From Escherichia phage Mangalyan, in the sequence record OR449013: 64,000 bases of DNA. One strand, written 5' to 3'. The first letter of the stretch is position 1; every line of letters begins with the position of its first letter. This document shows, in pieces, positions 1,978-58,631 of the stretch. Made by a program: the position numbers and the translations under genes. The notes below the pieces were generated by a model that saw nothing but the letters and a program-made list of their open reading frames with translations, was not told the origin of the DNA and searched no databases.

Positions 1978-2532
1978 TTACTCCCTACTGTCAATATCAA
2001 AACTCATTGCAATACGGTATGCCTCCTCTAATGGTAAGAGTCTCCCCCACACATCCCAACCGACATCAAGCTGCCTGCCAAACAACTGTTGTGTGGTTCC
2101 GTGAGCATGACCGAACAGTTGGACTGATCCGTGAGGCTTTCTGTTCCACTTTGCAAACTGGTAATGGCTCATACAGATCAAATTCTTGTTGTGGCGAAGC
2201 TCGTAATAATCTACAACCTCATGACCGAACTCTTTCATAATTCTGACAGTCGTCCTTGTGTCATGGTTGCCACGAACAAGAATAATATGTCCGTTCAACA
2301 TATTTAGAATATCTGGAAGTAAGTTGTTGATATTCTTATCATTAGTGCACGCAATATCTCCCAAGTGGAACACAGTGTCTGCAGGTGACACAACAGAGTT
2401 CCACTTGGCGATGATTCCCGCATTCATACTGTCAAGATTGTGATCATACTGAGATCTGTGTTTTTGACATGAATCAAACTCCATGACCCGCTGATGGAGA
2501 AAGTGTGTGTCGCTTGTTACAAAGTATTTCAT
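1978..2532 (-). CDS. calcineurin-like metallophosphoesterase (candidate polynucleotide 3'-phosphatase or Ser/Thr phosphatase)
   Basis: motifs SDTHF (D-x-H), HLGDIA (GD), RGNHD (GNHD), GHAHG; start placed at internal ATG 2530-2532 (MKYF) with GAGGA RBS, directly after the stop of the upstream kinase ORF. Confidence 0.85.
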   Translation of the reverse strand: MKYFVTSDTHFLHQRVMEFDSCQKHRSQYDHNLDSMNAGIIAKWNSVVSPADTVFHLGDIACTNDKNINNLLPDILNMLNGHIILVRGNHDTRTTVRIMKEFGHEVVDYYELRHNKNLICMSHYQFAKWNRKPHGSVQLFGHAHGTTQQLFGRQLDVGWDVWGRLLPLEEAYRIAMSFDIDSRE

Positions 2533-2539
2533 ACATTCC

Positions 2540-2950
2540 TCATTTAAGTTTAATGCAGTTTTTAAGCTGGCGTTCCATACGATCCACAACCTTGTCTGGA
2601 ACATCATGAATGCTTTTATTACCGTGGCGGTTTTCAACCACGATCACGGTATAACTATACCCATGACTGATTGCCATGTCAACATATTCCTGCACATGTT
2701 TTTCTTTTGTAAACGTATTACTTACCACGATACGGTCGTATCCCATACGCATCATATCTTCTACGTTATCTTTGCACCATTTTGCTGCGAGTGTTACTTT
2801 ACTTGCATCCCAGTTGTAATTGCCGTCATCGTCATACCAGAACATGTCGTTCTCAAAATGTGGATACAGACCCTCTAAAGATAGCGCATTTGCCAGTGTT
2901 GATTTGCCAGACCCTGGTAGACCACGCACGATATATAGCATTTTAGACAT
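2540..2950 (-). CDS. P-loop kinase, polynucleotide 5'-kinase-like
   Basis: Walker A GLPGSGKST near N-terminus; start placed at ATG 2948-2950 (MSKMLYIV) preceded by GGAGGG; immediately upstream of the phosphoesterase gene. Confidence 0.65.
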   Translation of the reverse strand: MSKMLYIVRGLPGSGKSTLANALSLEGLYPHFENDMFWYDDDGNYNWDASKVTLAAKWCKDNVEDMMRMGYDRIVVSNTFTKEKHVQEYVDMAISHGYSYTVIVVENRHGNKSIHDVPDKVVDRMERQLKNCIKLK

Positions 2951-3010
2951 AGTGACCCTCCGTTTTAATTTCAACGGTAGTATACCTGACTGTTTTGTTA
3001 ATTTCAAGTG

Positions 3011-3040
3011 TTGACACTAGGTTATTTGTGTGGCAGGATA
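3011..3040 (+). promoter_or_regulatory. candidate sigma70-like promoter in divergent control region
   Basis: TTGACA at 3011-3016; -10 element poor; sits between divergent kinase and RNA ligase genes. Confidence 0.3.
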
Positions 3041-3050
3041 GACTGACAAA

Positions 3051-3986
3051 ATGACAAATGAGGAACGTATAATGAAGTATTTTAATGCAGACGACCTAGT
3101 TGACAAAGGTCTTGTAACCAGTAGGTATTACCCAGATCTCGGGCTAAAGATCTATAAATATGCCAGAAAAGTATTCTACAACAATCTGTGGCATTTGTCT
3201 CCGCGTTTACTGGAGTGCCGAGGTATTGTTGTTGGCAATGAGGGGAATGTTGTGGCATGGCCTTTCACAAAAGTATTCAACTTAGGAGAAAACTCCACCA
3301 ACCTACCGGACAGTAAACTTGTTACTGCGGTAGAGAAAAAGAACGGATTCCTCGGTGTGGTATCATCTCATAAAGGTGACCTATTGTTCTCAACAACCGG
3401 GTCTCTTGATTCTCCATATTGTAACCTTGCAAAGGAAACCATCCAAGAGCAATGTGGTAATTTAGATCTTATCAAGAAGGTTATGGGCAATGAAAACATG
3501 ACATTCATGTTTGAAATTTGTCACCCTTCAGATCCGCATATTGTTCAAGAAGACCATGGCGCATATTTGATAGGTTGCAGATATAATGATTCTGGAATAA
3601 TGCTACCAGAAGCAGCTTTAGATGGGATTGCCAAATACCTTGGTGCAAAACGTCCTCACACTGTGCGTGAAATTCCGTTCAGCTATGCAAAAGAGTTAGC
3701 TGCAGAAACAAGAGGTGAAGGATATATGATTCGTAAGCCTTACTACCCTTATGATCTGCAGTTGAAGATCAAGTCTCCATACTATCTGGCACGAAAGGCC
3801 GTAATGAGGGGTAAAGCTTGGAAGATTTGGGATGATGATATCTTTAAACGTGTTGACGAAGAGTTTTACGGCATGGTAAACTTCATTCGTAACAACTACA
3901 CAGAGGATGTATGGAACTGCCTCCTGGAGCAGGAACGCCGTGAGATACTTGACTGCTATTTCCACAACGAGGACTATATGCAATGA
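3051..3986 (+). CDS. rnlA: RNA ligase, Rnl1 family (T4 gp63-like)
   Basis: nucleotidyltransferase motif I K-x-N-G (VEKKNGFLG, Lys about residue 96); blocks LECRGIV and KVFNLGEN match the N-terminal region of T4 RNA ligase 1 as I recall it. Confidence 0.8.
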   Translation: MTNEERIMKYFNADDLVDKGLVTSRYYPDLGLKIYKYARKVFYNNLWHLSPRLLECRGIVVGNEGNVVAWPFTKVFNLGENSTNLPDSKLVTAVEKKNGFLGVVSSHKGDLLFSTTGSLDSPYCNLAKETIQEQCGNLDLIKKVMGNENMTFMFEICHPSDPHIVQEDHGAYLIGCRYNDSGIMLPEAALDGIAKYLGAKRPHTVREIPFSYAKELAAETRGEGYMIRKPYYPYDLQLKIKSPYYLARKAVMRGKAWKIWDDDIFKRVDEEFYGMVNFIRNNYTEDVWNCLLEQERREILDCYFHNEDYMQ

Positions 3987-4333
3987 AGAAGTTGATTGTG
4001 TGGCTGGATGACTTGAGAGATCCGTCAAATTACGGGCTCCAAGACGCTGTTTGGCTAAAGAATTCCTCCGAGTTTATAGATTTTATTAACGATAATAGAA
4101 AGCTCTACAGACGCGTTTCTGAGTGGCACATGGACAACGACCTTGGAGAGTTGTTCGAAGGGTACGATTGCCTATCTATGTTGGAGGAAAAATTTGTATT
4201 TGGTAAGCCCCCTGTAGTTGACAACGTGAAGATTTTCGTGCATACTTCTAACCCATCAGCGGCTCGTAAATTCATGCTTGCAGCTGACTCGTTTAAAAAG
4301 TTTGGAATAGAGATTAAACAAAACATCTACTGA
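3983..4333 (+). CDS. hypothetical protein (116 aa)
   Basis: ORF overlapping stop of rnl by 4 nt (translational coupling); no motif recognised. Confidence 0.55.
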   Translation: MKKLIVWLDDLRDPSNYGLQDAVWLKNSSEFIDFINDNRKLYRRVSEWHMDNDLGELFEGYDCLSMLEEKFVFGKPPVVDNVKIFVHTSNPSAARKFMLAADSFKKFGIEIKQNIY

Positions 4334-4341
4334 GGACACTT

Positions 4342-5103
4342 ATGCGACGACTGATTATTATCTCCGGTGCTGGTTTGAGCGCTGAATCTGGTATTCCCAC
4401 TTTCCGATCTGGTAGCACTGCAATGTGGGAGAATTTCAGCATCGATGAGGTGTGCAACATCCACACCTTTGCCAAGAACTACTACAAGGTGCATGACTTT
4501 TACAATGCACGTCGTGTAGCTCTAGGCGGTGTTGAGCCTAACCTTGCACATCTTCGGATCGCTGAGTGGTATTCCCGCTGGTCTGGTCGTGTGATCAACC
4601 TTACCACCAATGTAGATGATTTGCTGGAGCGTGCTGGTGTAAAACATGAAGATATTTTACATGTTCACGGGTATTTGCCAGAAATAGTCTATGAGGACGA
4701 TGAAGGAAGTGACGTCATTAAGGACATTGGATACTCTGAGGTAGATGCAGGAAAGTATACCTGGGTTAAACCTAATGTGGTGTTCTTCGGAGAAGTAGCT
4801 CCGAAGTATACAGACATGTATGACCTGTTGACTTCTCTTACAAGCAATGATATGGTTATCCTTGTAGGGTGTTCCAACACAGTTATCAATTTTAACTGGG
4901 AGCTATTCCCTGCCTGCAATAAGGGCACCAAACTGCTGATCGTTAACAAATACGACTCACAGCATCTAGAGGAGAATGGCATTTCACGTAGTGATATTTA
5001 CCAGTACGAGGATCGCGGCATCCCGGTTTGGTTTAACGGGGCGGTTGACGCTTTCTCTGATAAAACATTCATTGAGACCGTAGAAAACTTTATGGAACTT
5101 TAA
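4342..5103 (+). CDS. Sir2-family protein (NAD-dependent deacylase / ADP-ribosyltransferase fold)
   Basis: canonical Sir2 NAD-binding motif GAGLSAESGIPTFR at residues 9-22, TTNVDDL, HVHGYL (catalytic His), VVFFGE; no zinc-ribbon cysteines. Confidence 0.8.
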   Translation: MRRLIIISGAGLSAESGIPTFRSGSTAMWENFSIDEVCNIHTFAKNYYKVHDFYNARRVALGGVEPNLAHLRIAEWYSRWSGRVINLTTNVDDLLERAGVKHEDILHVHGYLPEIVYEDDEGSDVIKDIGYSEVDAGKYTWVKPNVVFFGEVAPKYTDMYDLLTSLTSNDMVILVGCSNTVINFNWELFPACNKGTKLLIVNKYDSQHLEENGISRSDIYQYEDRGIPVWFNGAVDAFSDKTFIETVENFMEL

Positions 5104-5116
5104 AAGGAGACCTTTA

Positions 5117-5830
5117 ATGCTGAATACTAAACTGATCGACAACCTGGAAAAACTGTCTCAGCCTGAAAACTACCTTTGGTCTGCCAACTGGGTGGAAAAC
5201 TGGAACCGTGTGGCAGCTAAAGTGAAAAAATCATACACACCATTCGAATTACAGCTTAGCTTCATTGAGGAAGAGTTCAATGAGGTTTTGGAAGAGCTGG
5301 AGAAAGGTGATGGTGGAGATCACCTGCTAAAAGAGGCCTGCGATCTTCACGTTGTCACAAGTTATGCCGCTTATCTTGTTAATGATAATCACGAAAAGTG
5401 GTCAAACCTGTTTGATAATCCACGAGGTCTTAAGTTCAAGATCGGTGAGTTCTATGATACACTGATCGCTGCGAAAAACACATCCAAGCAAAGAGCGTCA
5501 GCTTACCGCTTAGCGGAGTTGTCAACAGCTTTGCTGTTCCAGCTTCGCGGCGATGTGTGTGGGATGATGCGGAAGGTTCTCAAATCTAATGACAGCAAGT
5601 TTGCACGGATCAACCATCTACGATATTCTCACGGTGCCAGTGCAGATATGTCTACTGAATTGCTCATAGAGTTAGAGATTGAAGATCTTGAGCGTCGTTT
5701 TGGTGGTCGCTACGAAGGTTTCGTTGCTAAAGAGGAGTTCTACAACGGTAATAAAGTTATTATATTCCTTGACAGTAAAGGTAAGATTATGAAGCCTTCG
5801 AGCTTCAAGGATGTAACAGAGTATATTTAA
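5117..5830 (+). CDS. MazG-like nucleotide pyrophosphohydrolase (tentative)
   Basis: acidic cluster EEEFNEVLEELEKGDGGDHLLKEACDLHVV resembles the all-alpha NTP-PPase E-x2-E ... E-x2-D metal-binding pattern; 237 aa. Confidence 0.45.
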   Translation: MLNTKLIDNLEKLSQPENYLWSANWVENWNRVAAKVKKSYTPFELQLSFIEEEFNEVLEELEKGDGGDHLLKEACDLHVVTSYAAYLVNDNHEKWSNLFDNPRGLKFKIGEFYDTLIAAKNTSKQRASAYRLAELSTALLFQLRGDVCGMMRKVLKSNDSKFARINHLRYSHGASADMSTELLIELEIEDLERRFGGRYEGFVAKEEFYNGNKVIIFLDSKGKIMKPSSFKDVTEYI

Positions 5831-5836
5831 CAACAT

Positions 5837-5860
5837 AGCCGGGATTACCCGGCTTTACTT
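5837..5860 (+). terminator. rho-independent terminator
   Basis: stem AGCCGGG / CCCGGCT with 4-nt loop followed by T-rich tract. Confidence 0.6.
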
Positions 5861-5892
5861 ATTATGGAAAGTATGCAGTGAGGTAGTTAGTT

Positions 5893-6201
5893 ATGTACAA
5901 GCATTCCAGAGATCTTGAAAAAGATGCTGTGTTTGGCGACCAGATGAAGGAGCTGATCAAACTTATAGGTAGAATGGAAGATAAGTTTGACACTAAAATC
6001 TACATCGATAGCAAGATCTTCAACCACAAAATATGGACAAATGTGTGTGTTGGGCTACATGGTGATAAAGATATTGTAAATTTGGTTGTAATAAAGTTCA
6101 TAGTGTGGCAGAATAGGACTATACGTTATTCCGATCCACACTTACTTGTTTATCCTATAAAAGACCTACTACAGAAGGAGGACTGCAATGCCGTTATTTA
6201 A
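5893..6201 (+). CDS. hypothetical protein (102 aa)
   Basis: ORF after terminator with GAGG-containing leader. Confidence 0.5.
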   Translation: MYKHSRDLEKDAVFGDQMKELIKLIGRMEDKFDTKIYIDSKIFNHKIWTNVCVGLHGDKDIVNLVVIKFIVWQNRTIRYSDPHLLVYPIKDLLQKEDCNAVI

Positions 6202-6457
6202 TCTTGCTAAACCTGTAGAAGCACACCAGTTTGATGGAAGCTCTTCATCAGTATCTGATCTGCAACGGTGGATTGATACAGGTGTGTTTACATCGTCACC
6301 TGTTCGGACCAGAGATATTCGTCGCATGTGTGAGCTTGTTGAGCCGTTTGGTAACCTTGTCCTGTACCAGGGAGATTGGCTAGTTGACTTTATGGGAGAC
6401 TGGTTGGTAATGAGTAAAGAAGAGATGTTTAAAATTTTTAAGGAAGAGGCCGAGTAA
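6188..6457 (+). CDS. hypothetical protein (89 aa)
   Basis: ORF with GAAGGAGG upstream; overlaps neighbours by a few nt. Confidence 0.5.
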   Translation: MPLFNLAKPVEAHQFDGSSSSVSDLQRWIDTGVFTSSPVRTRDIRRMCELVEPFGNLVLYQGDWLVDFMGDWLVMSKEEMFKIFKEEAE

Positions 6458-7740
6458 TGCATCAAATCAAAACAACACTGTACGCACTGAACAAAGATGG
6501 CAGCTACCAACAGTGGAAAGTATTCACTGATGGCGAAAAGGTTATCGTAGAGTTTGGCAAGCTTGACGGTAAATTGCAGTACAAAGAGACGGTATGCACA
6601 CCTAAGAACGTAGGTCGTGCCAATGAGACTACAGCTGAGCAACAGGCCGAGCTTGAGGCTATCAGCAAGTGGGAAAAACAAGTCCGTCTGGGGTATGTTG
6701 AAAACATGGAAGATTGCGAGCAGGGTGTTGATCTTTTACCCATGCTGGTGCATGACTACCTGAAGCGTGGCAAGGCACTTAAACTACCTTGCTGGATCTT
6801 GCGTAAGTTAGATGGCCTTCGTCTGCTTGTTGTTTTCCAAAATGGTGAGCCTAAATTTATTTCCCGTGGTAATAAGTCCTACCCTATTCAAGGAAAGCTT
6901 TTAGAGCAACTTCGTTCTTTCCATTCTACCACTGGGATTAAACAACTTGATGGGGAACTATACATTCATGGTCTTCCTTTGCAGAAAATAGTGTCTCTTG
7001 CTAAACGGTGGCGCACACAGGAAGAGATTCAGGCCGAGATCGATAAAGACTATGAGGCAGATAAAAAACGCCGTCATGCCGCAATTAAGTCCGGCTTATC
7101 AACATACAAAAACTTCAACAAGGTAGATATTCCTGTCGATGTTGAGCCTGTTCGTGATGATTTGCGTTACGGTGGGTACTGTAGCTACGATCTGGAGTAT
7201 CACATTTTTGATATTCCTAGCGACAAGGTGTGGTGGGATCCCGAAACAGAGTCTGGACGCTGCAAGGATCTTATGGATGCAGAGGATACCGTTACCACTC
7301 TGATGCTTGACCATATCAAGGTTGTTGACGCAGAGCTTGCGTACACAGTTGATCATTGCGAAGAATCTGTTGGTATATTCATGTCCGAAGGATATGAAGG
7401 TACCATTATGCGTAACTTCTGTGGTAAATATGAGTACGGTCAGAGAACATCTGAAGCATTGAAATGGAAAAAGTTCAACGACGCAGAGGTGAAAGTTATT
7501 GACGTTGAGAAAGATAAGAATGATGAAGGTGTTCTTATCTGTGTTGACAAGGAAGGTATTGTTGTTAAAATGAAGATGAAAGGTACGCACGAGGAGCGTA
7601 GCTATGACAGAATGCAGGAAATGATCGGCAAGTTTGTCACCTTCAAATATCAAGCAAGGACAGAAGACAACAACTACCAATTCCCTGTCGGTATCTGCGT
7701 CCGAAATGTTAACCCAGACACTTGGGAGGTGCTGGAATAA
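6457..7740 (+). CDS. ATP-dependent polynucleotide ligase (probably DNA ligase)
   Basis: motif I KxDG (LRKLDGLR), EGTIMR (motif IV-like), LKWKKF (motif V K-x-K); 427 aa. Confidence 0.7.
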   Translation: MHQIKTTLYALNKDGSYQQWKVFTDGEKVIVEFGKLDGKLQYKETVCTPKNVGRANETTAEQQAELEAISKWEKQVRLGYVENMEDCEQGVDLLPMLVHDYLKRGKALKLPCWILRKLDGLRLLVVFQNGEPKFISRGNKSYPIQGKLLEQLRSFHSTTGIKQLDGELYIHGLPLQKIVSLAKRWRTQEEIQAEIDKDYEADKKRRHAAIKSGLSTYKNFNKVDIPVDVEPVRDDLRYGGYCSYDLEYHIFDIPSDKVWWDPETESGRCKDLMDAEDTVTTLMLDHIKVVDAELAYTVDHCEESVGIFMSEGYEGTIMRNFCGKYEYGQRTSEALKWKKFNDAEVKVIDVEKDKNDEGVLICVDKEGIVVKMKMKGTHEERSYDRMQEMIGKFVTFKYQARTEDNNYQFPVGICVRNVNPDTWEVLE

Positions 7741-21964: not shown

Positions 21965-22821
21965 AAGTTGTAAAACGGGACGGTAGAGAAGAGGTCTATA
22001 ACGGAATTAAGGTGATCAAGGCGGCAGAGTCCGCCTTACTTGAGTCTGGACATACTGAAGAAGAAGCTTACCGGATCGCCTGCGCGGTTAATGAAGTTGT
22101 TGCTAACACTCTACCAACCGACCAGTGCACGATCTCTGTAAAAAATATCCATATCCTTGTTGAAGACGCTCTTATGGATATGGGTTTAAAATGTGCAGCC
22201 AGAGAATACATCCAGTATAGGCAGACAAGAGATAATAATAGAGAGGCAGGTGGAAAACTGCTTGCAGATATTAGTGGCTTCTTGGATCGCACTTGTGATG
22301 AATTTACAAAAGAAAACGCAAATAAGCCTACCAATCATGTACACACTCATCGTGACCTGCTTGCAGGCATCCTTAGCAAACACCTTGCATCAACACAGAT
22401 CCTGCCAGACCGTGTCTCAGAAGAGCACAATAGAGGCTTCATCCATGTGCATGATCTTGACTACTTGATCAGTCCGTTAACAAACTGTTGTTTGGTAAAT
22501 TATCCAGATATGTTGGAAAACGGATTCAACATTGGTAACGCCCATGTCAGTAAGCCGAAGTCAATAGGGGTTGCAACAACAATCCTTAGCCAAATCTCTA
22601 GTGCAGTAGCTAGTGCTCAATATGGTGGTCAGACTATGAGCCATATTGATCATTATCTGGCACAGTATGCTGAAGCGACCTATGAGAAGAACCTTAAATT
22701 TTGCCAGGAACATTGGTTGCCAGATGCTGAGACTGTTGCAATGCAAATGACAGATAAAGACGTATTTGACAGCATGCAGACTTTGCTCTATCAAATCAAT
22801 ACGTTAACTTCTGTCAACGGT
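21961..22821 (+). CDS. nrdD: anaerobic ribonucleotide reductase NrdD, exon 1
   Basis: GTG start overlapping upstream stop; ATP-cone MKVVKRDGREEVYN; reading frame hits TAA at 22822 exactly where a P1 helix and intron core begin. Confidence 0.8.
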
Positions 22822-23618
22822 TAACAAACTGGCCGTTGTAAAACTCTCCTAACCTCATAAGAGGGGTCGGTAAATCCGGCTAACGGGGAACGCTAAGGCG
22901 AAAGCTATGCCAATCCCGTGACTAGTTCTTACAGGAGTTGGAACGGTTGTAACGACTAACGAAAGGCAGAGATGCTTGACAAACATTTCTGAACCAAGTA
23001 GTGTAGGGGTTAGTTGAAATACTAACTTCGAAATGGAGAGGCTCTATGAAAAAGATCATTCTTAATGGTGAAGAATCAAACTATGTGATTGATGAGGTTG
23101 GAAACGTATACGGAAAACGTGGAATGCTACACCCAATATTGTGGGGAGGTTATGGAAAAGGTAAAAAGCATGTTAAACGCCGTTATATGTACTCTTTCAA
23201 CCACAAAGGTAAAAAGATTCGAATCCAAACCTCAAGGATTGTTGCCTTGTATTGTTTGCCGGATGTCCCAGAAGACCCTGAAAACTGGGAAGTGAATCAT
23301 AAAGATGGCAATACATTGAATGATCATCCGTCTAACCTAGAGTGGGTTTTGCCGGAAGATAATAAGAGACATGCTTTCCGAACAGGACTTTGTCCAGGTA
23401 AGTGCTATAGGAAAGTGCAGGCATACAAAGGGAAAACCTTGGTGGGTGAATATCCTTCACTCTATGCCTGTGCAAAAGCCTTAAATTTGAACGTAGGTAA
23501 CGTTCATAGGGCTATCGAAGGAAATGCCGAAGGTAAGCATCTCACAATAAAGGGTTATTATCTTATTGAAGTAGAGTAAGAGATAGTCTGGCCCTGTGGA
23601 AACACAGGGAGGAGACAG
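22822..23618 (+). mobile_element. group I intron (IA-like) interrupting nrdD, carrying an HNH homing endonuclease ORF
   Basis: P1: exon CAACGGU (22815-22821) pairs perfectly with intron GCCGUUG (22832-22838), U-G at splice site; core-like AACGGGGAAC and CAATCCCGTG; omega G at 23618 restores frame ...SVNG|QTPFITLSLGLDTS. Confidence 0.8.
23046..23579 (+). CDS. HNH homing endonuclease (intron-encoded)
   Basis: HNH_3-like EVNHKDGNTLNDHPSNLEWVLPEDNKRHA; strong RBS GGAGAGG before ATG; located inside the intron. Confidence 0.75.
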   Translation: MKKIILNGEESNYVIDEVGNVYGKRGMLHPILWGGYGKGKKHVKRRYMYSFNHKGKKIRIQTSRIVALYCLPDVPEDPENWEVNHKDGNTLNDHPSNLEWVLPEDNKRHAFRTGLCPGKCYRKVQAYKGKTLVGEYPSLYACAKALNLNVGNVHRAIEGNAEGKHLTIKGYYLIEVE

Positions 23619-24881
23619 CAGACTCCATTCATCACATTGAGTTTAGGACTGGATACCTCGGTCTTTGGTAGAATGATTACCAAAAACTACTTGAAAGTCC
23701 ACAAAATGGGTCTTGGTGAAGAACGTATTACACCTGTATTCCCTAAAGTGCTGTTCTTCCTGGAAGAGGGTGTTAACATGAACCCTGGGGATCCTAACTA
23801 TGATTTGAAACGATTAGCTCTGGAATGCTGTGCAGAACGTATCTACCCTGACTTCGTATCTGTACCACTAAATAGAAAAGTGACAGGCTCGACAGATGGC
23901 AAAGTAACGAGCATGGGTTGCCGGAGTTTTCTTAGCAAATATAATGACTTGGAAACAGGTGAGGAAAAATACCTTGGCAGATTCAACTTGGGTGTTGTTA
24001 GCCTTAACCTGCCAATGATTGCGGCAAAAGCTAAGACGGAAGGTGTTGATTTCTTTGCAGTTCTTGACGAATACTTGGATCTTGCATACGAGGCTCACCT
24101 TGTAAGGGTTAACCGTCTAAAAGGAACAAAGGCAGGGCAGAACCCCATCATGTGGTGTGAAGGCGCTCTTGCTCGCCTGGATCCTGAAGAAAGTATTGAT
24201 AAACTCTTCTATGACGGGTACGCTTCCATCAGCATTGGGTATATTGGTGTGTATGAAACCTGTCAGATTTTGGGCAGAGAGGGTGACAAGGCTTTAGCTC
24301 TTGGAATCCTTCAGCACATGAGAGATGCTTGTGAGCGATACAAGAAGGAAAGTAGACTAGCGTTTAGCTTGTACGGCACCCCTTCTGAGAGTCTATGCTA
24401 TAAAGCTGCAACCTGTCTGGATCGTGAATATCCTGAAGTGTTGAAGCACGAGCATGAATATCTCACCAACAGTTTCCATCAGCCAGTATGGATCAATAGC
24501 TCTCCTTTTGATAAGTGGGCGTATGAGGAAGGTTTTGCTATGATCTCCTCTGGTGGCAACATCGGATATGTAGAGACACCGAATCTGAAAAACAACTTAG
24601 ATGCTTTAGAGGCTCTTGTTGACTTCGGGTATAAACACATTATGTATTTTGGTATTAACCAACCTGTGGATAAATGTCTCAAGTGTGGTTTCTCTGGGGA
24701 GTTCAGTGCAACAGCTAAAGGCTTTGTATGCCCAGAGTGTGGAAACCATGAAGAGGGAACGATCAGTGTGATCAGACGTGTGTCTGGATACCTTTCCAGT
24801 CCTAACTCCCGTCCTTATAATAAAGGTAAGCAAGCGGAAGTTATCGAGCGAGTTAAGCACTATGGAAGTTGTAGTTGCTGA
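23619..24881 (+). CDS. nrdD: anaerobic ribonucleotide reductase NrdD, exon 2
   Basis: glycyl-radical motif RRVSGYL near C-terminus, zinc ribbon CLKCG ... CPECG; frame open from 23580; 5' boundary set by inferred 3' splice site. Confidence 0.8.
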   Translation, partial: QTPFITLSLGLDTSVFGRMITKNYLKVHKMGLGEERITPVFPKVLFFLEEGVNMNPGDPNYDLKRLALECCAERIYPDFVSVPLNRKVTGSTDGKVTSMGCRSFLSKYNDLETGEEKYLGRFNLGVVSLNLPMIAAKAKTEGVDFFAVLDEYLDLAYEAHLVRVNRLKGTKAGQNPIMWCEGALARLDPEESIDKLFYDGYASISIGYIGVYETCQILGREGDKALALGILQHMRDACERYKKESRLAFSLYGTPSESLCYKAATCLDREYPEVLKHEHEYLTNSFHQPVWINSSPFDKWAYEEGFAMISSGGNIGYVETPNLKNNLDALEALVDFGYKHIMYFGINQPVDKCLKCGFSGEFSATAKGFVCPECGNHEEGTISVIRRVSGYLSSPNSRPYNKGKQAEVIERVKHYGSCSC

Positions 24882-58115: not shown

Positions 58116-58631
58116 TCACCTCAGAAGATGGTCGTCAACACTTTTGTACTCTACTACAACCACATCAATATCTGTGGTTGCAAGATTAATTACATCTTCT
58201 ACATGTTCCCACTTTAGACCTCCAATACCGCATCCGATTTTAGGAATGTAGAACGGCAATGACATACCTTTGAATACCTCGTTGACTCGCTCAAAACCTT
58301 TCATGATTGAGAAGTATTCAGCATTGGGCCCTGGGTAGAACTGGGTATACAGGTTGATTCCATATACGACCCTGGCCTTGGCAAAATGCTCCCAACAAGA
58401 AAACATACCCAGCTTGTCTAGATTACCATAAGCAGTCTCTTTGTCGGCTGCCAGTGCTTGAGGGAACTCACGGGCAATATCTTTCGCTATACCTGCACCC
58501 ATTGTGTGAAAGCAGTTACAACCGTGGATCATGTGGCCTGACCCTTTCTTGAAAATGGAGATTAGATCTCCCTTTACAGTATCAATAATCACGGTATTCC
58601 AGCTCCTCTTCTGCAATTTCCAAAAACTCAT
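58116..58631 (-). CDS. macro-domain protein (ADP-ribose binding / processing)
   Basis: GDLISIF ... IHGCNCFHTMGAGIAKDI and IPKIGCGIGGLKWEHV match macro-domain N-x6-GxG-I-A and G-x-G-G loops; start placed at internal ATG 58631 to limit overlap. Confidence 0.65.
   Translation of the reverse strand: MSFWKLQKRSWNTVIIDTVKGDLISIFKKGSGHMIHGCNCFHTMGAGIAKDIAREFPQALAADKETAYGNLDKLGMFSCWEHFAKARVVYGINLYTQFYPGPNAEYFSIMKGFERVNEVFKGMSLPFYIPKIGCGIGGLKWEHVEDVINLATTDIDVVVVEYKSVDDHLLR

Follow-up and report, generated by a model that had tools for sequence, protein, structure and literature searches.

A zinc-free, phage-only sirtuin in an RNA-end-processing operon of Escherichia phage Mangalyan, with a possible role in RNA repair

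In bacteria, sirtuins are best known for two activities, the deacylation of proteins and the consumption of NAD+ as effectors against phages, and canonical members carry a CxxC...CxxC zinc ribbon, which shapes the substrate cleft, between the catalytic HG and the FGE loop. Sirtuin deacylation and the reaction of Tpt1 share two steps, attack of a nucleophile on C1'' of NAD+ followed by attack of the ribose 2''-OH; we know, however, of no sirtuin with a phosphate nucleophile or an RNA substrate. The ligase domain of fungal Trl1 is related to T4 Rnl1 and the 2'-phosphate at the junction is later removed by Tpt1. Fungal Trl1 unites cyclic phosphodiesterase, kinase and ATP-dependent ligase functions in one protein, and its ligase needs a 3'-OH,2'-PO4 end (PMC10946426).

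The closest described system is the type 2 neighbourhood of Iyer, Burroughs, Anantharaman & Aravind 2022 (Viruses 14:1977, PMC9503650), with Escherichia phage V5 and Proteus phage Mydo as prototypes. Section 3.7.3 of that paper describes exactly the phage V5 neighbourhood and proposes that the sirtuin strips 2'-phosphates from RNA with NAD+ in a KptA/Tpt1-like manner. The literature that we searched on this phage sirtuin clade consists of comparative papers (from the Aravind laboratory) and genome announcements only, and holds no experiments on it.

We report an analysis of 64,000 nt (the window, i.e. the whole stretch of DNA analysed) of Escherichia phage Mangalyan (OR449013), an rV5-like Vequintavirus that is 98.7% identical to rV5-type phages. 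The genes around its sirtuin are the same as in the V5 system and nothing material differs. The sirtuin gene is called Sir2-like in most of the annotated related records listed and the RNA-repair hypothesis is in print, so neither is new as a finding; the Tpt1-analogue idea has stood as a prediction since 2022 and the new part would be proof alone. What we add to the V5 system is a zinc-free and Q-to-T signature, an invariant Y-x-x-R, an acidic pI, an apparent NADAR fold replacing the cyclic-phosphate processing Receiver-like protein (cREC) in Hena1-like phages, the proximity of NAMPT, and the near-absence of the clade from cellular genomes. An earlier annotation of this DNA made from its letters, here called the sequence-only reading, included neither the published V5 neighbourhood nor the KptA/Tpt1-like mechanism (PMC9503650).

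Motifs, predicted fold and family of the sirtuin

The sirtuin gene (4342..5103, + strand) runs from an ATG to a TAA codon and encodes a zinc-free, class III-like protein of 253 aa. The Rossmann NAD+-binding motif GAGxSxxxGIPxFR is present as GAGLSAESGIPTFR (residues 9-22; residues 8-22 read SGAGLSAESGIPTFR), with GAGLS at residues 9-13, TTNVDDL occupies residues 88-94, and HVHG includes the H109-G110 pair, which is invariant in the clade and aligns to the HG of CobB. The key residues are F21/R22, Y54/R57, N90/D92, H109, FFGE (148-151), S178 and N202. In an alignment of 56 clade sequences S16, G17, F21, R22, F53, Y54, R57, R58, N90, D92, H109, G110, F148, F149, E151, S178 and N202 are invariant and the GAG motif (G9, A10, G11) nearly so, while S16, G17, F21, R22, G9, A10 and G11 are all invariant in an alignment of 16 sequences. 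The intact Sir2 signature, NVDDL and catalytic HG named by the sequence-only reading were thus all found in the open reading frame, its catalytic residues are kept on alignment, and the active site is almost certainly intact.

The equivalent of TQNID is TTNVDD: the Gln is Thr across the clade, and the Asn and Asp, which in TQNID contact the nicotinamide ribose, are kept. There are three cysteines in all (C38, C177 and C192) and none in the 33-residue segment from HG to KPNVVFFGE (residues 111-143), in agreement with the earlier claim that zinc-ribbon cysteines are lacking; the four cysteines of the ribbon are all missing. In the AlphaFold2 model (pLDDT 90.5, pTM 0.89) a small beta module persists in this region (pLDDT 94-96). 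A regular-expression scan found 0 Cys in the ribbon segment for 21 of 28 TTN[VI]D representatives, and at least three for 37 of the 45 TQN representatives.

The protein is a genuine member of the Sir2 family, with a match far beyond chance: Pfam SIR2 (PF02146) gives E=5.5e-27 and 95.3 bits (cut-off 24) over profile positions 1-178 of 180, and PHROG 2162 'Sir2' gives E=3e-109. Searching the PDB with phmmer, E. coli CobB (1s5p) was found at E=4e-21. The predicted model points to the same family, the top 50 Foldseek PDB matches all being sirtuins (E down to 4.5e-18), with CobB, Af Sir2 and SIRT5 as the best (TM 0.72-0.75, query-length normalised; about 24-28% identity in the Foldseek alignments). 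GAGxS...GIPxFR, the N and D of TQNID, the catalytic HG, the FGE loop and Y-x-x-R are shared with these proteins; unlike them, the phage sirtuin has no zinc cysteines, has TTNVDD for TQNID, scores below the CobB equivalog cut-offs, is confined to phages and lies inside an RNA-end-processing operon.

This resemblance is the basis of the main rival to a role in RNA repair, namely that the protein is a conventional, class III-like NAD+-dependent lysine deacylase (probably a deacetylase and/or a desuccinylase or demalonylase) acting on host or phage proteins, e.g. translation or RNA-repair factors or metabolic enzymes, with cREC, MazG or Nudix, and macro proteins disposing of the O-acyl-ADP-ribose by-product. 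We regard it as possible but rather unlikely. The nearest sequences and folds are those of bona fide deacylases (CobB, SIRT5 and Af Sir2), and conservation extends to the catalytic His, to the N/D pair and to FFGE, the loop that binds peptide. Moreover, F53-Y54-N55-A56-R57-R58 aligns with FYNARR of CobB and FYHYRR of SIRT5, with Y54 and R57, the class III Y-x-x-R, invariant in the phage clade; SIRT5 uses this motif to bind the carboxylate group of succinylated or malonylated lysine. The macro protein of the phage resembles OARD1, an O-acetyl-ADP-ribose deacetylase, and Nudix enzymes are known to hydrolyse O-acetyl-ADP-ribose. What a lysine deacylase requires is in fact all kept, i.e. the FFGE substrate loop, the Y-x-x-R and the residues that match those lining the acyl-lysine tunnel of other sirtuins, and sequence alone therefore gives RNA no preference over protein substrates. 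A deacylase would, however, leave unexplained that separate phage lineages all have the gene next to RNA-end-processing enzymes, which come from three different families, and it is at odds with the loss of all zinc-ribbon cysteines, the change of the TQNID Gln to Thr, a phage-only clade and a score of 102.7 bits on the NCBIfam CobB equivalog NF040867 (cut-off 320).

A host-derived housekeeping CobB was rejected on an identity of ~27%, scores far under the NCBIfam cut-offs (also 122.4 bits against 243 for NF001753) and clade motifs that are nearly missing from cellular genomes. The protein does not cluster with housekeeping CobB, the outcome that would have counted against the sequence-only reading. 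The clade-specific motifs occur at 1 locus across 185,579 species genomes, whereas the sirtuin has 856 homologues, mostly on phage-sized contigs, and relatives in 975 phage records; it forms a distinct, essentially phage-only clade carried by about a thousand sequenced phages (Vequintavirinae, T5-like, phi92-like and jumbo phages). Descent from class III (CobB/SIRT5-like) sirtuins with loss of the zinc ribbon is the best explanation of its origin, as part of an overall reading that we hold tentatively.

A link to the Sir2 NADases of anti-phage defence, which the sequence-only reading mentions, was not supported. ThsA, DSR1/DSR2, SIR2-HerA and SPARSA share the Sir2 superfamily and the NAD+ substrate with the phage protein, which, in contrast, is a single domain with no sensor or partner domain and is encoded by a virulent phage among RNA-repair genes. 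The PADLOC defence-family scan of the sirtuin gave no match at E up to 0.01 and was equally blank for the cREC and MazG-like proteins, none of the 50 Foldseek matches listed, whose E values are all 6e-14 or lower, bears the description of a defence-type Sir2, and the closest folds are class III deacylases.

The operon and its counterparts in other phages

The sirtuin gene is the third in an operon with the order RNA ligase, cREC, Sir2 and MazG-like, followed by a terminator-like hairpin. The first gene (3051..3986, + strand) encodes a T4 Rnl1-type ATP-dependent RNA ligase (Pfam RNA_lig_T4_1, PF09511, E=1.5e-14; PHROG 562, E=3.5e-66); its longest ORF starts at 3051, and the start annotated in the relative MaxBurger (MZ501093) corresponds to 3069. 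The cREC gene (3983..4333, + strand; 116 aa, cREC_REC PF20274, E=3.1e-15) begins in overlap with the ligase stop, and its own TGA stop overlaps the ribosome-binding site of the sirtuin gene, a GAGG 6 nt 5' of the ATG. Judged from conserved columns, the Receiver-type acidic pocket of cREC is kept (D9/D10 nearly invariant, D51/D53 invariant, plus T88/S89 and K96). A search for cREC homologues gave 55 phage proteins, all single-domain, and hence no informative fusions; its function is a prediction (PMC7824862). After a gap of 13 nt the sirtuin gene is followed by the last gene of the operon (5117..5830, + strand; 237 aa), predicted to encode a MazG-like nucleotide pyrophosphohydrolase by PHROG 671 (E=5.7e-22); a Pfam search with this protein gave no match, and its V5-type counterpart has been assigned to the MazG superfamily (PMC9503650). 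Seven nt past its stop lies the GC-rich hairpin (5837..5854, + strand; a 7-bp stem with 6 GC pairs and a T-rich tail), which probably closes the ligase-cREC-Sir2-MazG transcription unit; a terminator is annotated in the corresponding stretch of phage EdH4.

Two further genes are transcribed divergently from the operon. One (2540..3007, - strand) encodes a P-loop polynucleotide-kinase-like protein (Pfam AAA_33, E=1.7e-10; PHROG 2071 and 505 'polynucleotide kinase'), which MZ501093 likewise calls a polynucleotide kinase, with a start corresponding to 2950. The other (1978..2637, - strand; annotated start corresponding to 2532) encodes a calcineurin-like metallophosphoesterase (Pfam Metallophos_2 and Metallophos; PHROG 547, E=1.8e-52), a candidate end-healing enzyme for RNA 2'/3'-phosphates or cyclic phosphates. 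The five neighbour genes of the type 2 system of Iyer et al., in which the calcineurin-like phosphoesterase is an optional member, thus lie within 1978-5830, and the Pfam and PHROG matches bear out the earlier statement that a phage-encoded sirtuin stands beside RNA-repair and MazG-like genes. That statement left unnamed the cREC gene directly upstream and treated the RNA-repair neighbours as scenery. These neighbours are the main functional clue to the sirtuin.

The linkage recurs in other phages, the loci sampled standing for few independent lineages. Of 49 viral loci, 12 have metallophosphoesterase, RNA ligase, kinase, sirtuin and MazG genes together despite rearrangement; they belong to Vequinta-, Mydo-, Seuna- and Hena1-like phages, with a sirtuin identity of 44-95%, and eight of them also have cREC (sirtuin identity 53-95%). 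Of 29 T5-like loci, 28 lack the ligase-cassette genes and instead encode, directly downstream of the sirtuin, a phosphatase of the HAD_SAK_2 type ('Swiss Army Knife RNA repair'). In the jumbo phage slurp01 the next gene after the sirtuin (39% identical) overlaps it and encodes a Nudix protein, and cREC comes after that. The cREC slot is filled in three Hena1-like loci by a protein (phrog_652) that has no match in Pfam or PDB sequence searches and whose model (pLDDT 97) matches NADAR structures only; this match comes from structure comparison alone and is borderline (E=1e-3, TM 0.51-0.57), and the protein could be an unrelated anti-DarT gene that is in the slot by chance. Beside the sirtuin of six phi92-like loci and of L051 there is no recognisable RNA-repair gene, and the phi92-like neighbours (DUF7275/DUF7277 and unknowns) give no functional clue.

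NAMPT, which recycles the nicotinamide released by sirtuins, is encoded within 4-8 kb of the sirtuin in nine loci; in L051 it lies some 0.5 kb upstream, with one small ORF between. Together with cREC, NADAR, Nudix and MazG it might form a module for turnover of NAD+ and ADP-ribose rather than for RNA repair, the sirtuin being an NAD+ glycohydrolase or a maker of soluble ADP-ribose derivatives that manipulates host NAD+ and nucleotide signals or serves counter-defence. The proximity of NAMPT is consistent with such a role, as are the partners recurring in separate lineages (cREC, NADAR-fold, Nudix and MazG), whose known or predicted substrates are ADP-ribose and pyrophosphates, and phage SIR2 domains have been suggested as possible producers of ADP-ribose-derived signals (Iyer et al. 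2021, PMC7824862). We nevertheless consider it improbable: the protein resembles no defence-type NADase Sir2 model, it strongly conserves acyl-lysine-type features (Y-x-x-R and the FFGE loop) for which a plain NADase has no need, depletion of NAD+ would hurt the phage, and the linkages to RNA ligase, kinase and HAD_SAK_2 would be left unexplained.

The distant macro domain gene

A macro domain ORF at 58116..58631, noted earlier, does exist (- strand; Pfam Macro, E=8e-6, 26.2 bits against a cut-off of 22), within a longest reading frame that begins at GTG 58691. Its product is Poa1p / OARD1 / DarG-like, with SCO6735, DarG, Poa1p and OARD1 as its PDB relatives, and could clear ADP-ribose derivatives. 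The further proposal that it is the other half of an ADP-ribosylation circuit, in which the sirtuin would be a SirTM-like protein ADP-ribosyltransferase and the macro protein the eraser, appears very improbable to us. Both genes are in one genome, as in SirTM systems, and both look intact, and sirtuin-macro pairs are found elsewhere, in SirTM operons and in Streptomyces phage Moab (PMC9503650). The macro gene of Mangalyan is, however, not in an operon with the sirtuin, being outside the RNA-repair cassette, 53 kb away and on the opposite strand, and 2729 phage records have relatives of it, compared with 975 that have relatives of the sirtuin. Its carriers include phages of ~166-172 kb, where the match lies beside a valyl-tRNA synthetase modifier gene, and wV8- and VpaE1-type phages of ~88 kb, which we take to be T4-like and FelixO1-like, respectively; neither type is among 50 sirtuin match rows sampled across the ranking. 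A dedicated Sir2-macro pair was rejected because of this distance, strand and far wider distribution. In addition, the macro protein is nearest to the DarG, TARG1 and Poa1p types, and Iyer et al. explicitly describe the sirtuin clade as lacking a coupled macro gene (PMC9503650). For the macro protein, a role against DarT2 or in the general clean-up of ADP-ribose is just as possible.

A possible role in RNA repair

A functional tie of the sirtuin to the processing of RNA ends or of ADP-ribose derivatives is, in our judgement, probable. We tentatively favour, at somewhat short of an even chance, an active, NAD+-consuming and operon-borne sirtuin that takes part in the repair of broken RNA, most likely of tRNA cut by anticodon nucleases of the host. 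Within this reading, Tpt1-like chemistry itself is a possibility that we hold with more doubt, and a phage sirtuin that is an RNA 2'-phosphotransferase, i.e. a non-homologous replacement of Tpt1/KptA, is a little more doubtful still. KptA and Tpt1 would be matched in role (NAD+-dependent removal of RNA 2'-phosphates), in an analogous two-step chemistry and in having ligase, kinase and cyclic-phosphodiesterase-type partners; they have an ADP-ribosyltransferase fold, in contrast to the Sir2 Rossmann fold of the phage sirtuin, and since the folds are unrelated the latter is not a member of their family but would be a functional analogue.

In the reaction put forward by Iyer et al. 2022, the likeliest chemistry on this reading, a 2',3'-cyclic phosphate would be opened such that a 2'-phosphate remains at the break or junction. 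This RNA 2'-phosphate would attack C1'' of NAD+ in the sirtuin active site with departure of nicotinamide, after which the 2''-OH, activated by the histidine, would displace the RNA, giving an RNA 2'-OH and ADP-ribose 1'',2''-cyclic phosphate; the latter would be broken down by cREC, MazG and possibly the distant macro domain. The cREC cyclic phosphodiesterase, P-loop kinase, Rnl1-type ligase, sirtuin and Poa1p-like macro protein would then correspond to a complete fungal/plant-style (Trl1 + Tpt1) set for healing and sealing tRNA, with which a virulent E. coli phage would reverse an anticodon-nuclease defence at the expense of NAD+. The analysis shows the family, the fold, the intact catalytic motifs, the operon, the recurrent linkage and the restriction to phages; the NAD+ turnover, the RNA substrate and each chemical step are inferred.

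Several observations argue against the RNA repair reading. T4-type healing (kinase-phosphatase plus Rnl1) leaves no 2'-phosphate, and the metallophosphoesterase of the cassette could itself take off 2'- or 3'-phosphates, which would make a Tpt1-like step unnecessary. The sirtuin is acidic (pI 4.8; clade median 5.1), which is unusual for an RNA-handling enzyme, yet the RNA ligase of the operon is acidic too (pI 6.0). The phi92-like and L051 loci without a recognisable adjacent RNA-repair gene and a cREC function that is itself a prediction also count against it.

A zinc-ribbon-less, phage-only sirtuin clade in about a thousand phages is thus tied to RNA-end-healing genes. Were the Tpt1 analogue true, the known chemistry of sirtuins would come to include phosphates of nucleic acids, and a 2'-phosphotransferase would, to our knowledge, be the first case of a sirtuin proven to work on such a phosphate instead of on acyl-lysine. 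It would also add an NAD+-dependent arm to the ways in which phages counter tRNA-cleaving immunity, and could help to explain why some phages have genes for NAD+ salvage and ADP-ribose clean-up and why depletion of host NAD+ is an effective defence. No tRNA genes lie within the 64,000 nt of the window; the relative MaxBurger has a tRNA cluster just past the point that matches its left end.

The sirtuin gene and its relatives

The gene at 4342-5103 (+) has an ATG start, a TAA stop and 253 codons, and its ribosome-binding GAGG, 6 nt 5' of the ATG, shares bases with the stop of the gene before it. The ORF carries the motifs SGAGLSAESGIPTFR, TTNVDDL and HVHG, covers nearly the full Pfam SIR2 profile (E=5.5e-27; 95.3 bits, threshold 24) and matches PHROG 2162 'Sir2' (E=3e-109), while its nearest PDB sequences are those of E. 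coli CobB (1s5p, E=4e-21), human SIRT5 and Archaeoglobus Sir2. That it encodes a sirtuin with an intact active site, as the sequence-only reading held, is nearly certain. The protein has three cysteines (C38, C177 and C192), none of them among the 33 residues from the catalytic HG to KPNVVFFGE, so the remark that zinc-ribbon cysteines are missing was correct. CobB has zinc ligands (C...CxCC) aligned in this segment and the Gln of TQNID, whereas the phage protein has no zinc ligands and a Thr instead of the Gln.

Megablast of window positions 3000-6500 returned 120 phage records, 117 with at least 80% query coverage, and the best identity (98.7%) was to Escherichia phages EdH4, rV5_ev168 and MaxBurger (genus Vequintavirus). 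Among the annotated records listed, most name the sirtuin gene ('putative Sir2-like protein', 'NAD-dependent protein deacylase' or 'sirtuin domain NAD-dependent deacetylase'), and two records hold a 100% identical protein; the gene was thus known and annotated beforehand. As for labels, 16 to 25 'Campylobacter phage' records with Campylobacter jejuni as host (e.g. MG065655, MG065661, MG065662 and MG065672; hits H13, H41, H43 and H89) are 79-96% identical to the rV5-like window phage in the regions tested, and probably either the organism/host labels of these records are wrong or the preparations were contaminated. Moreover, the sirtuin homologue of Klebsiella phage vB_Kpn_3 (P0059) carries the name 'tail assembly protein'.

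Two alignments of the clade (16 and 56 sequences, 45-98% identical) share the invariant residues S16, G17, F21, R22, F53, Y54, R57, R58, N90, D92, H109, G110, F148, F149, E151, S178 and N202, and the GAG motif (G9, A10 and G11) shows no variation among the 16 sequences and almost none among the 56. Judged by sequence comparison, these positions are those that bind NAD+ or act in catalysis in sirtuins, together with the FGE substrate loop and a Y-x-x-R motif; the latter aligns with FYNARR in CobB and FYHYRR in SIRT5, and in class III sirtuins it binds an acidic acyl group. The hallmarks of the clade are the replacement of the Gln of TQNID by Thr and the loss of the zinc cysteines. An exhaustive HMMER search (E up to 1e-3) gave 5594 matches, and in a regex scan of 150 representatives 21 of 28 with TTN[VI]D had no Cys in the ribbon segment, while 37 of 45 more distant ones with TQN[IV]D had at least three. 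This pattern makes the clade look like a branch of class III-like sirtuins that has become zinc-free.

The AlphaFold2 model (pLDDT 90.5, pTM 0.89) retains a small beta module at residues 110-146 (pLDDT 94-96) and is uncertain only in the cofactor loop (21-30) and an insertion (201-220). The top Foldseek matches in the PDB are CobB, Af Sir2, SIRT5 and SIRT2 (closest TM 0.72-0.75, normalised by query length). All NCBIfam CobB and deacylase models score far under their cut-offs. Kinship with defence-associated Sir2 proteins, for which a comparison had been suggested, found no support: no PADLOC defence model matched the sirtuin, and none of the Foldseek PDB matches listed is described as defence-type.

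Gene neighbourhoods in the window and at related loci

The sirtuin is the third gene of a tight same-strand block, preceded by a T4 Rnl1-type RNA ligase (3051-3986 (+); PF09511) and a cREC_REC domain protein (3983-4333 (+); PF20274), the start of which overlaps the ligase stop by 4 nt, and followed by a MazG-like pyrophosphohydrolase (5117-5830 (+); PHROG 671) with a GC-rich hairpin and T-rich tail 3' of it (5837-5854 (+)). Divergent from the block are genes for a polynucleotide-kinase-like P-loop protein (2540-3007) and for a metallophosphoesterase of the calcineurin-like kind (1978-2637), and an ATP-dependent DNA ligase (6457-7740) lies beyond the MazG-like gene. The RNA-repair and MazG-like neighbours noticed earlier were all matched in Pfam or PHROG. 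In 27 cREC homologues the acidic receiver pocket is kept (D51 and D53 invariant, D9 and D10 nearly so), as are T88/S89 and K96. Between the MazG-like and DNA ligase genes lie two small hypothetical genes, 5893-6201 (+; PHROG 7684) and 6188-6457 (+), which have homologues in nearly all rearranged RNA-repair/sirtuin cassettes of ~145-kb phages and travel with this module. ARAGORN predicted no tRNA genes in the 64-kb window; in MaxBurger a six-tRNA cluster (L050 422-1234) lies near the RNA-repair cassette, ~1-2 kb beyond the position of the window's left end.

Using clade-specific peptide patterns we gathered 49 viral loci, on which homologues of the window neighbours were placed by tblastn. In twelve Vequinta-, Mydo-, Seuna- and Hena1-like loci (sirtuin identity 44-95%) the genes for metallophosphoesterase, RNA ligase, kinase, sirtuin, DNA ligase and MazG have stayed clustered in an order that differs, and eight of these loci (sirtuin identity 53-95%) have cREC as well. 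The window-cassette neighbours were absent by tblastn from the 29 T5-like loci, 28 of which have a HAD_SAK_2 'Swiss Army Knife RNA repair' phosphatase gene (PF18143, E=4e-20) directly downstream of the sirtuin. PHROG 18062 'Sir2 (NAD-dependent deacetylase)' matches the C-terminal half of this phosphatase gene (T5-like locus L003, 9142-9648), which contains no sirtuin, and the label has probably spilled over from the adjoining gene. No recognisable partner was seen in six phi92-like loci. Downstream of the 39% identical sirtuin gene of jumbo phage slurp01 come a Nudix (Nudt16-like) gene, which overlaps it, and after this cREC.

Three loci lacking cREC (contigs like Erwinia phage Hena1; L037 7308-, L044 7079-7564 and L046 7090-) have a 161-aa PHROG 652 protein between kinase and sirtuin, the cREC slot of most other cassettes. 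Pfam NADAR does not detect it; the only probable PDB matches to its AlphaFold model (pLDDT 97) are three NADAR domains (YbiA (2b3w), 8bau and 8bat; probabilities 0.97-1.0, TM 0.51-0.57), and some homologues are fused to DUF4326. As modelled, a NADAR-fold protein occupies the slot. In nine ~145-kb phage loci (L022, L024, L027, L028, L037, L044, L046, L047 and L049) a homologue of nicotinamide phosphoribosyltransferase (NAMPT) is encoded at a distance of 4-8 kb from the sirtuin; none was found in the 64-kb window. The clade is nearly absent from cellular genomes, with a single match on a 43-kb contig of a Bacilli MAG (L051 2664-6723), where NADAR, one ORF, NAMPT and one small ORF come before the sirtuin, and endonuclease VII, NrdD and NrdG after it. 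Across the compared loci, therefore, two surroundings recur: enzymes that heal and seal RNA ends, and enzymes that degrade or recycle NAD+-breakdown products.

Candidate chemistry and the macro domain

The receiver-like cREC domain was defined by Iyer et al. 2021 (PMC7824862), who found it never with histidine kinases and in every case linked to RNA ligases or to enzymes that process NAD+/ADP-ribose, and predicted that it opens cyclic phosphates. For the sirtuin, Iyer et al. (PMC9503650) proposed a KptA/Tpt1-like role, i.e. NAD+-dependent removal of an RNA 2'-phosphate, with neighbours opening the cyclic phosphate or degrading the ADP-ribose cyclic phosphate product; we found no experimental test of the clade's proposed function in the literature searched. 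Since the gene is annotated and this specific hypothesis for this phage type is published, the finding is already known at the computational level. Our additions are modest: the zinc-free and Q-to-T signature with its family-wide correlation, the invariant Y-x-x-R, the near-absence from cellular genomes, the NADAR-fold protein in the cREC slot, the proximity of NAMPT, and evidence against the macro domain as dedicated partner.

From its sequence and setting we commit to a predicted active, NAD+-consuming sirtuin working inside a phage RNA-break repair module, and a functional tie to RNA-end or ADP-ribose processing is probable. Tpt1-like 2'-phosphate removal, by analogy, may be its most likely chemistry, a choice we make tentatively. 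We infer that anticodon nucleases would leave 2',3'-cyclic phosphate and 5'-OH ends, which a cyclic phosphodiesterase (perhaps cREC) and the kinase would convert to 2'-PO4/3'-OH and 5'-PO4, respectively, for sealing by the Rnl1-type ligase; one account of fungal Trl1 has it making 3'-OH,2'-PO4 and 5'-PO4 ends for its own ATP-dependent ligase domain (PMC10946426). The leftover 2'-phosphate would attack C1'' of NAD+ in the sirtuin site, the 2''-OH activated by His109 would free the RNA and ADP-ribose 1'',2''-cyclic phosphate, the latter might be broken down by cREC, MazG or Nudix, and macro, and nicotinamide would be recycled by NAMPT where present. Because this two-step pattern is common to sirtuin deacylation, the fold may be pre-adapted to such a reaction.

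Several points count against Tpt1-like removal. We know of no sirtuin shown to remove an RNA 2'-phosphate via NAD+, this protein has an acidic pI (4.8; clade median 5.1), T4-style healing leaves no 2'-phosphate, the metallophosphoesterase alone could clear the phosphates, and some sirtuin lineages have no RNA-repair neighbours. Moreover, every deacylase feature is conserved, which also favours the main rival, a class III-like lysine deacylase of the conventional kind, with the same neighbours removing the O-acyl-ADP-ribose that it forms; we regard it as possible. An NADase or a signal generator is unlikely.

The sequence-only reading had also joined the sirtuin to the ORF at 58116-58631 (-) in an ADP-ribosylation circuit. 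That ORF is a genuine macro domain, closest to SCO6735, DarG, yeast Poa1p and OARD1 and thereby to the DarG, TARG1/OARD1 and Poa1p types. Yeast Poa1p is an ADP-ribose 1''-phosphate phosphatase; some records label the gene 'Poa1p-like' or 'phosphatase', and it could complete the breakdown of ADP-ribose cyclic phosphate or O-acyl-ADP-ribose. The writer-eraser circuit, however, is very improbable: the two genes are 53 kb apart on opposite strands, macro relatives occur in 2729 phage records versus 975 for the sirtuin and include phage types missing from the sampled sirtuin matches, and the sirtuin clade was explicitly stated not to be macro-coupled (PMC9503650). Distance, strand and wider distribution thus speak against a dedicated macro partner. 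By analogy with the orphan NADAR antitoxins that neutralise DarTG1 in Bas60-62, phages assigned to Vequintavirinae (PMC11825919), the orphan macro protein may equally be a candidate anti-DarT2 factor countering DNA ADP-ribosylation.

An interrupted nrdD gene

Finally, the anaerobic ribonucleotide reductase gene nrdD (22297-24860 (+)) is split into two tblastn pieces, 22297-22821 (aa 29-204) and 23619-24860 (aa 205-568), which adjoin in the protein and lie ~800 bp apart in the DNA. The gap contains a 177-aa ORF (23046-23579), and the Rfam group I intron model matches there below threshold (23322-23609; 27.7 bits versus a gathering score of 50, E=2e-4). A group I intron, which may carry a homing-endonuclease ORF, probably accounts for the interruption; T4 nrdD holds a comparable intron.
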